A stretch of DNA of 25,866 nt, taken from the IMG/VR virus record IMGVR_UViG_2724679538_000003; one strand, 5' to 3'. The position numbers were made by a program, and so were the translations under genes. This DNA comes from a virus. Taxonomy: Duplodnaviria; Heunggongvirae; Uroviricota; Caudoviricetes. Positions 6,198 through 10,660 of this stretch are shown here, one piece after another. Below the pieces are notes generated by a model that was not told where the DNA came from, searched no databases, and saw only the letters and a program-made list of their open reading frames with translations. Each line of letters opens with the position of its first letter. The first letter of the stretch is position 1.

Positions 6198-6480
6198 GCT
6201 TTAAATAGGGTAATAGAGATGTTGAATCTCATTCCGGGATTCATGTTTGTTTACTTATTATTTATCGGGTGACTTTGCCTGATGTTTAAAATGTTTTCTT
6301 CCAGTACTATGTCCCTAGATACAATGAGTCTGCATATTACATTATTAGCAGAGCTATTACGGTCAAAGTACAGCATAAGCTTTAAAAGCCAATCAACCAG
6401 TCATCAAGACAGACGGGGTTATTCATGAAAACTCTCCATGTTTGATTCGATGGGGCCTGAAATTAAAGCTTTAATATAGC

Positions 6481-6693
6481 TCATGAAAGGTAAACATTGG
6501 CAGCTGAAGGGCCACGCAGACCATTTATCCGGCAAAATTCCACGCGTAATCCGGTGGTAATTTCTTCTGCATCGCGGAGATTGAGCGCTGAAACATGAAG
6601 CTGGACATCGATACGACCATCGGATGGGGTGATAAGACCCTTGCCGCTTTTGCCGTCAAAGGTTTTGACAATTCCTGTCATTTTACGGGACAA
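6481..6693 (-). CDS. cspF: Cold-shock protein family, CspF-like
   Basis: 70 aa, [26 protein letters not shown]...[13 protein letters not shown]; matches the Qin CspF pattern as recalled. Confidence 0.85.
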
Positions 6694-6995: not shown

Positions 6996-7211
6996 ATGTC
7001 AAATAAAATGACTGGTTTAGTAAAATGGTTTAACGCTGATAAAGGTTTTGGCTTTATTTCTCCTGTTGATGGTAGTAAAGATGTGTTTGTGCATTTTTCT
7101 GCGATTCAGAATGATAATTTTCGAACCTTATTTGAAGGTCAAAAGGTTACCTTCTCTGTAGAGAGTGGTGCTAAAGGTCCTGCAGCAGCAAATGTCATAA
7201 TTACTGATTAA
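6996..7211 (+). CDS. cspB: Cold-shock protein, CspB-like
   Basis: 71 aa, [38 protein letters not shown]...; canonical CspA-family RNP motifs; about 290-bp upstream leader typical of csp genes. Confidence 0.9.
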
Positions 7212-7574: not shown

Positions 7575-7745
7575 TCAAGCTACAGCTTTAAGATTTGTCT
7601 GGAATACTTTGTTGCAATGAGGGCAGATCAAAAGGGCACCTTTTTGTACTCTTGAAAAACTGTGTTCTGACTCTTGGGTGCAGTTTGGGCAGGAACATTT
7701 AACGAGATAATTACGGCGTGATTTTGAGTCTTTACGTTCTGACAT
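7575..7745 (-). CDS. Small zinc-ribbon protein (56 aa; CxxC-x17-CxxC)
   Basis: Minus-strand ATG at 7745 with an AGGAAAAG SD upstream; MSERKDSKSRRNYLVKCSCPNCTQESEHSFSRVQKGALLICPHCNKVF...; terminator directly downstream. The track ORF extends to 7796 but the internal start has the SD. Confidence 0.55.
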   Translation of the reverse strand: MSERKDSKSRRNYLVKCSCPNCTQESEHSFSRVQKGALLICPHCNKVFQTNLKAVA

Positions 7746-7963
7746 AGGCTTTTCCTGTATAAATGGCCGTATACAGTACACTAAATATGAAAACATATCT
7801 CGTATTATTATTTAATATATGATTTTCTTTTAAAATAATTACCCACATTTTTAATGTGTCTGTTTTTTAGCGCCGTTGAGAACAACGTTTGCTATAAAAA
7901 CTAACCCATAGACTCCGATCTTTTCAAACATATTGCACCATCTGTGTACATCGGGGTGAGGAT

Positions 7964-8179
7964 ATGAAATCAATGGATAAGTTAACAACAGGTATCGCCT
8001 ATGGCACATCGGCTGGTAATGCTGGTTTCTGGGCATTGCAGTTACTCGATAAAGTAACTCCGTCACAGTGGGCTGCAATCGGTGTGCTGGGTAGTCTGGT
8101 TTTTGGCCTGCTGACGTATCTGACAAACCTTTATTTCAAGATTAAAGAAGACAGGCGTAAGGTTGCGAGAAGAGAGTAA
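7964..8179 (+). CDS. Class II holin (phage 21 S-like pinholin) with dual-start motif
   Basis: GGGGTGAGG SD; starts MKSMDKL (Met1 and Met4 dual start as in S21); two TMDs ([19 protein letters not shown] and [23 protein letters not shown]); charged C-terminus. Confidence 0.85.
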
Positions 8180-8183
8180 TCCA

Positions 8184-8735
8184 ATGACACAAGACTATGA
8201 ACTGGTTGTGAAAGGAGTCCGCAATTTTGAGAATAAAGTGGCGGTAACTGTAGCCTTACGGGACAAAAAACGCTTTGACGGTGAAATTTTTGACCTGGAC
8301 ATCTCGCTGGACCGTGTTGAAGGTGCCGCGCTGGAGTTTTATGAGGCAGCAGCCAGAATGAGAATCAGACAGGTATTCCTGGATGTTGCTGCCGGGTTAT
8401 GTGTAGGGGATGAGCAGTCGCCGGAAAAGCGCCCCATAATTTTAGAGGCGCAGAATGTGTGGATAACCTACAAAGGAAAGCTACCGGGAAGAATTACTGG
8501 TTCTCTGAAGACGCCGCCGACGGCATTGCGGTCAGAAAAAGATGATATTGAATCGCCCATTGAAAAACTGGAGGGCAGCGTCGCTGATCTGAATAAAAAA
8601 TTGTCGGTGCTGATCCCTTCTGAAGATGAAAAAAAACGCCGCGATGAGCAGTTTGCGGCGTTTTACGATTATTGCATTGAAGTTACTCGCAGGAGTTTTG
8701 TGAAGATTTTTGAGGAGGGTAAATCTCTTCAGTAA
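8184..8735 (+). CDS. Hypothetical protein (183 aa) inserted between holin and endolysin; occupies the position ydfR has in Qin
   Basis: ATG at 8184 with a GAGAG SD 7 nt upstream, directly after the holin stop; soluble, charged, no TMD. Family not assignable from sequence. Confidence 0.7.
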   Translation: MTQDYELVVKGVRNFENKVAVTVALRDKKRFDGEIFDLDISLDRVEGAALEFYEAAARMRIRQVFLDVAAGLCVGDEQSPEKRPIILEAQNVWITYKGKLPGRITGSLKTPPTALRSEKDDIESPIEKLEGSVADLNKKLSVLIPSEDEKKRRDEQFAAFYDYCIEVTRRSFVKIFEEGKSLQ

Positions 8736-8943
8736 GCTTAATGGCGGACGCTGCAATTAATTCAGGAAGGTCCGCAAGGTCATCTGTCAGTGGATATGAT
8801 GAAAAATCGGCGGCAGTTCTGTTAAGAAGCGCTTTAACTAATTCCTTTTCCTTCTCCGGCAACAAGTTGATTAGAGCTACGACTGCTTGCCTGAGTGCGA
8901 TTAAATCAGCAAAAGTTTGTTTTGGTAGATTTGTGTAATCCAT
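8683..8943 (-). CDS. Hypothetical small acidic protein (86 aa), convergent with and overlapping the 3' end of the 8184-8735 gene
   Basis: Minus-strand ATG at 8943 with an AGAGG SD 5 nt upstream; MDYTNLPKQTFADLIALRQAVVALINLLPEKEKELVKALL...; 53-bp convergent overlap. Confidence 0.55.
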   Translation of the reverse strand: MDYTNLPKQTFADLIALRQAVVALINLLPEKEKELVKALLNRTAADFSSYPLTDDLADLPELIAASAIKLTEEIYPPQKSSQNSCE

Positions 8944-9056
8944 AGTCACCTCTGTGTTTATCAGATTGACATCCTCCTCCCGCCACTGCCCATCACTGGT
9001 GAGGTAAGATTTAACATATCCGGGGATTTGAAGCCGATAAATCCTGATAAATATCC

Positions 9057-10084
<1,028 letters not shown>

Positions 10085-10447
10085 ATTAATATTAAATCGG
10101 ATTATTTTTAGCGCTGAATGTGAAATTTAAATAAAAAGGACTCTTCCATGAGTCAAAATCCTTGAAATCTTAAGGGTAAGATAAAAGGTCATTAGACAGA
10201 ATGACACGTTTTATTAATAAATAAAGCTATTGTTTCATTCGTGTGTTTTTCTTTACAAAAGTAATCCTTGCTATGGTTGGTTAATCATGCGTTAATGGTG
10301 TTCTGGTTTGTTACAAAATTATCTGAAGCAGTCATTGTTATAATTTTATTATTTGTACCTCTTGAGATTTCCTTGTTGGTTTTTCTCTCTGATATTTTTT
10401 TTCGGACCATTCTGCCCAAGGGCTAACTTCTTCAAAAGGTAATAATG

Positions 10448-10660
10448 ATGTCTAACAAAATGACTGGTTTAGTGAAATGGTTTAACCCTGAAAAAGGTTT
10501 TGGTTTCATCACGCCGAAAGATGGTAGCAAAGATGTGTTTGTCCATTTCTCAGCTATTCAGAGCAACGATTTCAAAACGTTAACTGAGAATCAGGAAGTC
10601 GAATTTGGTATTGAGAACGGACCTAAAGGCCCCGCGGCTGTTCATGTAGTGGCACTTTGA
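10448..10660 (+). CDS. cspI: Cold-shock protein, CspI-like
   Basis: [45 protein letters not shown]...; about 350-bp AT-rich leader upstream. Confidence 0.9.

Follow-up and report, generated by a model that had tools for sequence, protein, structure and literature searches.

A conserved, mobile pair of convergent overlapping genes in the lysis cassettes of lambdoid prophages

Introduction

The stretch of DNA analyzed here (IMG/VR record IMGVR_UViG_2724679538_000003; 25,866 nt, hereafter the window) is an Escherichia coli lambdoid prophage of the Qin/P21 type, the lysis cassette of which carries two convergent open reading frames (ORFs) between the holin and endolysin genes. The first encodes a 183-aa protein on the late strand, starts at an ATG (8184) located 5 nt past the holin stop and ends in a C-terminal module that we term X; the second, an 86-aa ORF here termed Y, runs in the opposite direction and overlaps the last codons of X. 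Co-occurrence of X and Y, the overlap of their ends and its relative frame are shared by three diverged lineages from two genera and at two positions in the cassette, and we read the locus not as a cassette that has been disrupted but as a conserved, mobile accessory module of two genes in lambdoid lysis cassettes. Its recurrence in E. coli and Salmonella prophages identifies the pair, by sequence comparison, as a real conserved module.

Genes at the locus

The region between positions 7900 and 9650 is 99.8-99.9% identical to prophages of O145:H28, CFT073, S88 and APEC O1, and both ORFs (183 and 86 aa) are present in the RefSeq annotation of CFT073 and of other strains. The annotated gene order in CFT073 is antiterminator ydfT, cspF, cspB, ynfU, essQ (holin), a partial 'YdfR family protein', a minus-strand 'hypothetical protein' (WP_001306174.1), rrrQ (lysozyme), rzpQ and cspI. 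The original prediction for this locus, made from the letters of the window, described two genes of no nameable family inserted between holin and endolysin and possibly coupled through their 3' ends. Its coordinates, the convergent 53-bp overlap, the position between holin and endolysin and the absence of a Shine-Dalgarno (SD) motif ahead of the endolysin are all reproduced by the ORF list and the sequence (Table 1). Besides the ATG of Y, which is preceded by AGAGGTG, an alternative GTG start is listed at 8949.

Table 1. Coordinates of the X/Y locus and its signals in the window
Feature	Position	Strand	Basis
Class II (P21-type) holin essQ, first gene of the late lysis cassette	7964-8179	+	Pfam Phage_holin_2_1, E=7.3e-34; RefSeq CFT073
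183-aa YdfR-family ORF: DUF1327 N-terminal domain, linker and C-terminal helical module X	8184-8735	+	ORF list, Pfam
YdfR core, aa 1-73, common to K-12 Qin ydfR	8184-8402	+	Sequence comparison
Module X, aa 113-183, two predicted helices	8520-8735	+	phrog matches, hhalign
Hairpin and U8, candidate intrinsic terminator of Y	8629-8664	-	RNAfold
Gene Y, 86 aa, acidic, predicted soluble	8683-8943	-	phrog_2572; RefSeq WP_001306174.1
Convergent 3' overlap X/Y, 53 nt: last 17 codons and stop of each	8683-8735	both	ORF list
SD of Y, AGAGGTG, 3 nt before ATG	8947-8953	-	Read from sequence
Conserved block upstream of Y, candidate promoter	9013-9054	-	Comparison of lineages A, B and C
Endolysin rrrQ, SD-less start	9057-9590	+	Pfam Phage_lysozyme, E=6.9e-24; RefSeq
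Rz	9587-10084	+	ORF list

The 183-aa protein and module X

Profile matches and gene position identify the 183-aa protein as a member of the YdfR/DUF1327 family. Residues 1-112 match positions 1-92 of the 93-position Pfam DUF1327 model (PF07041) with 140.8 bits (E=1.6e-41), against a cut-off (gathering score) of 25 bits, a match to phrog_2091 spans the full protein, and relatives carry the NCBI label 'YdfR family protein'. The gene also occupies the slot of YdfR in a Qin/P21-type cassette, with the class II holin directly before it and the endolysin after it: in the Qin prophage of E. coli K-12, ydfR (DUF1327, 103 aa) lies between essQ and rrrQ, starts likewise 5 nt past the holin stop, and encodes a protein with 82% aa identity to residues 1-73 of the 183-aa protein. 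The absence of a nameable family, as originally stated for this protein, has to be withdrawn; homology to ydfR/DUF1327, which the original prediction had listed, together with the lack of a phenotype, as something that would tell against it, is found as far as the homology is concerned.

K-12 YdfR, however, is complete at 103 aa, its stop codon overlapping the start of the endolysin, and its locus has neither X nor Y, nor the hairpin and upstream block described below. Up to 8389, the DNA of the window shares 93.5% identity with Qin essQ-ydfR; similarity then ends and resumes at 9047, and K-12 Qin is without positions 8390-9046. Rather than the insertion of two genes, these break points indicate that module X and the opposed gene Y took the place of, or were added to, the 3' part of a resident ydfR. 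The YdfR family is modular, with length classes of 103, 114-116, 169-183, 211, 268, 296 and 329 aa. In CFT073, RefSeq marks the YdfR gene (6285-6620, equivalent to 8184-8519 of the window) as a pseudogene of 112 codons, 'missing C-terminus', whereas the region of the window near-identical to CFT073 (99.8%) carries an intact 183-codon ORF, and the pseudogene call looks like an annotation artefact of the modular lengths of the family.

In the AlphaFold2 model of the 183-aa protein, residues 1-73 form three strands and a helix with block-mean pLDDT of about 70-88, and the remainder, modeled with low confidence, comprises a linker and helices at 123-141 and 147-181; with a maximum hydropathy of 0.96, the protein has no convincing membrane helix. 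Residues 1-72 of K-12 YdfR are reported to bind the catalytic (N-terminal) domain of RNase E and to co-purify RNA, and overproduction of the K-12 protein, which is devoid of X, is reported to change few transcripts, with no toxicity noted in the available excerpt of the source (PMC13232886). The YdfR core probably acts on RNase E or on RNA.

Matches to phrog_36381 and phrog_15975 are confined to the module X part of the 183-aa protein. Homologues of X are a 73-aa late protein, encoded by a free-standing gene in Salmonella prophages, and the tails at the C-terminus of other YdfR fusions: an hhalign comparison of the tails from the lineage of the window (lineage A) with the Salmonella 73-aa proteins gives E=2.4e-5 over 36 columns, reaching within two residues of both C-termini, and a match of the tail to phrog_34145 likewise links X across lineages. 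The pattern common to the lineages in these alignments is E-x-[KQ]-R-[RH]-[DH]-E ... [FL]-x-x-x-K-x-x-Q. In the free-standing form of X, the N-terminal 35 codons show a pN/pS of 0.3-0.5 between two divergent Salmonella subtypes.

Gene Y and its product

Y matches phrog_2572 (E=1.2e-53) and encodes an acidic protein (pI 4.6) that AlphaFold2 models as a three-helix bundle (mean pLDDT 72; helices 8-27, 30-48 and 56-74) with a C-terminal tail (75-86) predicted to be disordered. Its maximum hydropathy (1.62) falls in a helix with conserved Asp, Arg and Gln residues, and no convincing membrane helix is apparent. The G+C content of Y is 0.42, compared with 0.51 for the endolysin and 0.50 for the window. 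An exhaustive HMMER search recovered remote homologues of 89-93 aa (P0140, P0141) with 41-57% identity. Outside the overlap, dN/dS between the three lineages that hold Y is 0.22-0.30 with dS>1, and this codon comparison establishes Y as a real protein-coding gene under purifying selection. Close relatives of Y are all from E. coli except for one partial Salmonella match. Y is present in 314 of 5426 complete E. coli genomes, and genome-wide and metagenome scans yielded little past near-identical E. coli copies.

Searches with Y returned nothing above threshold in Pfam or NCBIfam (ABATE, E=0.078; DUF1823, E=0.11). The DUF1823 (PF08853) label that Y bears in the PhiR phage records was rejected on the basis of that same match, which reaches 13.2 bits against a cut-off of 25. 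An assignment to AcrIIC4 was rejected too, the PDB sequence profile match being non-significant (E ~0.2) and having no backing from fold searches, and eight matches of Y to a 975-aa TPR/CHAT protein look like helical-repeat or compositional similarity, not homology. Structure prediction, proposed originally as a check, could be carried out for both proteins, and the fold searches based on it gave generic helical bundles only, with nothing specific for Y in fold or PDB searches. No similarity was detected between Y and the C-terminal domain found in its place in long YdfR proteins. A literature search found no paper for the accessions or the PHROG identifier of Y; the paper on the Pas small RNA (sRNA) deals with the region upstream of the holin, not with the holin-endolysin slot.

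Y presents an in-frame length polymorphism in a Glu-Lys repeat (EKEKE; 8844-8858, codons 29-34; P0001, P0004), with forms of 84, 86 or 88 aa, the last in 7 of 81 close loci. Between window 8695-8935 and the Y of phage PhiR5_1, 10 of the 13 differences fall in five pairs of adjacent bases (8706/7, 8794/5, 8829/30, 8853/4 and 8934/5). A Y-like protein of 95 aa (P0142), in which many residues are replaced by Phe, Leu or Val, appears to derive from DNA with extensive C-to-T changes, as in damaged or chemically converted reads, and not to be a natural variant.

Conservation of the X/Y pair

Three diverged lineages hold Y: two in E. coli (A and B), between holin and endolysin, and one in Salmonella (C), after Rz. 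Among 81 close relatives of the window locus the pair is found in 78, and the overlap is of exactly 53 nt in 74 of these. Lineage B is represented by 7 complete E. coli genomes, in which Y is flanked on one side by the gene of a YdfR fusion (174 or 243 aa) and on the other by that of the endolysin. In the Salmonella enterica prophages of lineage C the cassette itself differs, consisting of two other holins, a GH19 lysin and Rz; the 73-aa free-standing X follows directly after Rz, its ATG overlapping the Rz stop (TAATG), and Y is convergent to it, just before cos and the terminase genes. The X/Y overlap measures 59 nt in all lineage B and C loci examined, in the same relative frame as the 53 nt of the window, with the exception of one copy truncated at a deletion edge. 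The pair also occurs in the plaque-forming phages 2H10, PhiR63_1, PhiR12_x and PhiR5_1, and it is thus compatible with normal lysis. The distribution of the pair, which the original prediction had named as a check, speaks for a genuine unit, present in E. coli prophages, in Salmonella prophages and in plaque-forming phages; the failure to co-occur that would have told against that prediction is not seen.

Most relatives have no opposed gene at this slot, and its absence from K-12 Qin and from Stx2_95 agrees with the original view that a second, opposed gene was unexpected there. Stx2_95, with a 329-aa YdfR and no Y, is similar to the window up to 8675 and then again from 9051, and in phages with other minus-strand cargo similarity returns from 8979-8981. 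The Y cassette is 95% identical between phages, whereas its flanks are 75-87% identical. All other reading frames in the Y region are closed. A frameshift variant, in four of the loci L013-L093 (P0016, P0095), has a Y of ~137 aa, a YdfR-X tail ending in ...DYCIEVTLAGIL and an overlap of 174 nt; these are probably decaying copies.

Candidate expression signals of Y

A conserved block lies upstream of Y (ATATTTATCAGGATTTATC), containing a -35-like hexamer (TTTATC, 9041-9036) and a -10-like hexamer (TATGTT, 9018-9013) separated by a 17-nt spacer. Its form across all lineages is ATATTTATCAGG(A/C)TTTATC, 17 nt, TAT(G/T)(T/G)T, with the hexamers and the 17-nt spacing kept in A, B and C and the spacer identical at 7 of its 17 positions between A and C. 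The block occurs once in the window, where 0.01 copies are expected, and at its far end it borders directly on the start codon of the endolysin; Salmonella has the block without an adjoining endolysin gene, and K-12 Qin lacks it. In Stx2 phage 86 (gp06) and in Stx1_699, unrelated minus-strand ORFs are preceded by this block too, and we regard it as a candidate promoter for minus-strand cargo. The ribosome-binding site of Y is kept in all lineages, with TAAGGA as the SD of lineages B and C at the equivalent distance from the start.

On the minus strand, 19 nt past the Y stop, a G+C-rich stem of 10 bp (8633-8642 / 8655-8664) encloses a 12-nt loop and is followed by U8. The hairpin lies inside the X codons for E-K-K-R-R-D-E-Q-F-A-A-F-Y (EKKRRDEQFAAFY). 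RNAfold predicts a hairpin downstream of the Y stop in all three lineages, with weaker U-tracts in B and C, and the stem is kept in 83.6% of cells compared with 38-70% for slid registers. In lineage B, a GC-to-AU double change keeps the stem and alters the X peptide motif from RRDEQFAAF to RHHENGVAF. Scans for consensus promoters and terminators reported nothing relevant; the loop limit of the simple terminator scanner is 8 nt, so that a hairpin with a 12-nt loop is missed. An Rfam search of 7800-9700 gave a sub-threshold match to a Bacillus sRNA only.

Endolysin start and neighboring genes

No SD motif is found upstream of the endolysin ATG (GATAAATCCTGATAAATATCC-ATG). Since K-12 Qin, in which the stop of ydfR and the start of rrrQ overlap, has the same A/T-rich leader, the SD-less start is ancestral to this cassette type and is not, as first supposed, a consequence of the insertion; only the translational coupling of the endolysin to ydfR is lost here. 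The plus strand contains a 65-aa ATG-initiated ORF (8741-8938), exactly antisense inside Y; on the late mRNA, no other frame would be open within the 321 nt that precede the SD-less start of the endolysin. A mirror ORF of 115 aa is found in another locus (L009). Both ORFs antisense to Y are probably shadow ORFs.

Cold-shock genes (cspF-, cspB- and cspI-like) bracket the lysis cassette at 6481-6693 (-), 6996-7211 (+) and 10445-10660 (+), and a ynfU-like zinc-ribbon ORF is located at 7575-7796 (-), as in K-12 Qin. With these genes around the cassette, the late region appears dense in small accessory genes on both strands.

Comparison with known systems

The bor gene of phage lambda is a moron that lies next to Rz, is transcribed against the late operon and is expressed in lysogens; its product, Bor, is a lipoprotein. 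Like bor, Y is a small extra gene of patchy distribution among relatives that faces late transcription, with a putative promoter, a terminator-like hairpin and a lower G+C content, and in Salmonella it is located, as is bor, shortly downstream of Rz, with cos and the terminase genes following. Unlike Bor, the product of Y has no signal peptide or lipobox, and Y always overlaps a conserved late-strand ORF that holds its terminator-like hairpin, besides splitting holin from endolysin in E. coli.

Other phages carry different genes at this slot and in this orientation. Downstream of the long YdfR gene of Stx2 phage 86 lies gp06 (104 aa, phrog_1853; L006 2817-3131, -), which has no sequence similarity to Y and does not overlap YdfR, and in the Stx1a phage Stx1_699 an unannotated 233-aa ORF (L008 2541-3242, -), for which no Pfam or PHROG family was found, extends ~250 nt into the 3' end of the gene for a 263-aa YdfR. 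Both share with the Y locus the block next to the endolysin start (window 8979-9056). Given these unrelated minus-strand ORFs, the slot looks like a recurrent landing site for backward-facing cargo.

The Bacillus subtilis loci txpA/RatA and bsrG/SR4 are type I toxin-antitoxin loci with convergent, 3'-overlapping transcripts. The X/Y locus resembles them in its convergent units and overlapping 3' ends, through which RNA pairing could couple expression, but here both strands encode conserved proteins, predicted to be soluble, with no small hydrophobic toxin and no family match. A precedent for overlapping genes kept in lysis cassettes is provided by the Rz/Rz1 spanin genes, with Rz1 embedded in Rz (~9738-10034). 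These, however, share one strand, use different frames and are known to function jointly, whereas X and Y are on opposite strands and overlap at their 3' ends only.

Origin and role of the pair

We consider it moderately probable that Y is a backward-facing moron travelling with an overlapping late-strand partner, X, and that the two are expressed reciprocally. The anatomy of Y, with its promoter-like block, ribosome-binding site, ORF and terminator-like hairpin, would be that of a moron placed backwards in the late operon, and Y is present or absent in relatives with sharp break points (8675/8676 and 8979-9051). Y would be transcribed from its own weak putative promoter while the prophage is repressed, yielding an RNA of ~380 nt that ends at the hairpin. 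Once Q-antiterminated late transcription runs through, Y would be switched off by occlusion of its promoter, by colliding polymerases and by antisense pairing of the 3' ends, and YdfR-X and endolysin would be made in the late phase while Y is shut off. Expression would thereby be reciprocal, with Y in the lysogen and X late. The retention of the overlap at 41-57% protein identity makes antisense or transcriptional interference, as suggested in the original prediction, a reasonable inference. The product of Y may have a role in the lysogenic phase, or it may be a partner of X or inhibit it.

Several observations weigh against this proposal. The candidate promoter matches 7 of 12 sigma-70 consensus positions and is not reported by consensus scans. 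Compensatory evidence for the hairpin amounts to 2 cells, which is not above shuffles; the hairpin lies in coding sequence, so that conservation at the protein level could explain part of its retention, and it is also present in long YdfR genes without Y. Within the lineage of the window, the variants of Y differ by 4 synonymous and 8 non-synonymous codons and show no clear constraint, and selection on X is weak or noisy, with ratios between lineages of 0.2-1.0 and above. Finally, X and Y could be found together through simple hitch-hiking, given the physical overlap of their ends.

A rival explanation is an accident of mosaic recombination. Y would be an independent moron that landed against the 3' end of a ydfR-type gene, with the overlap and the 183-aa tail as by-products and X and Y kept together only by their overlapping ends. 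The sharp identity break points flanking the cassette and the recent exchange implied by its 95% identity between flanks of 75-87% fit such an origin, as do the predicted disorder of the overlapped tail of Y (residues 75-86), the weak constraint on X and the unrelated minus-strand ORFs that fill the same slot in other phages. It is harder to reconcile with the persistence of overlap, frame and X motif at 41-57% Y identity in two genera and at two positions with different holins and endolysins, or with a free-standing X that is translationally coupled to Rz and shows a pN/pS of 0.3-0.5 between two divergent subtypes; moreover, the homology of X reaches past the overlapped codons. As the remote homologues show the same overlap, we downgrade the notion that it is a pure by-product of recombination and hold this origin to be possible but rather unlikely.

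Going further than the reciprocal expression of a moron and its partner, X and Y might form a lysogeny/lysis switch, in which Y, in the silent prophage, would bind or neutralize the X helix and, by way of it, the RNase E-binding YdfR domain fused to X in E. coli, until late transcription erased Y and freed YdfR-X to reprogramme RNA decay or lysis timing; alternatively, the pair might be an exclusion or abortive-infection module housed in lysis cassettes. We view either possibility as doubtful.

A toxin/antitoxin or abortive-infection pair timed to lysis and coupled via the convergent overlap, as put forward in the original prediction, seems improbable. Strict co-occurrence of two small genes, a 3' overlap that recalls some type I loci, plausible reciprocal expression and the small, acidic, helical nature of Y, shared with many antitoxins and inhibitor proteins, are in line with it. 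Nevertheless, neither the 183-aa protein nor Y, gp06 or the 233-aa ORF had a match in PADLOC-DB 2.0, where a single match, between a long YdfR and PbeC, was at chance level (E=0.018), no toxin or antitoxin family was found in Pfam or NCBIfam, and neither protein has a convincing membrane helix. The genes are convergent and of no known toxin or antitoxin family, unlike the co-directional operons of type II systems, and both ORFs are protein-coding, unlike the small hydrophobic toxin and non-coding antisense RNA of type I. Overproduction of K-12 YdfR, albeit a protein without X, is likewise described with no mention of toxicity in the accessible part of the report (PMC13232886). Family-level support for this reading is thus absent from PADLOC, Pfam, NCBIfam and the fold searches, and the earlier interpretation stands in part: the pair exists as described and is conserved together with its overlap, but one of the two genes belongs to an ordinary family, and the searches match neither to toxins or defense systems.

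That the 86-aa ORF is a chance open frame antisense to the late transcript and not a gene, as the narrow family without a Pfam model, the unclear constraint among its closest variants and the lack of a consensus promoter might suggest, is very hard to maintain against homologues at 41-57% identity that keep frame, length, helix pattern and ribosome-binding site, a dN/dS of 0.22-0.30 at saturated synonymous change, length variants of 84, 86 and 88 aa that are all in frame, and the closure of every other frame in the region.

Implications

The holin-endolysin-spanin cassette of lambdoid phages is among the best-understood gene sets in biology, and yet the uncharacterized X/Y module is present, inside it or at its end, in ~6% of complete E. 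coli genomes and also in some prophages of Salmonella. If Y is indeed on in the silent prophage and turned off by late transcription, the locus would represent a compact natural case of reciprocal control by convergent overlapping genes, in which the codons of one gene would contain the terminator of the other. Through the module, YdfR, recently reported as an RNase E binder, is linked to a second element, which may offer a handle on the role of the YdfR family in phage development.

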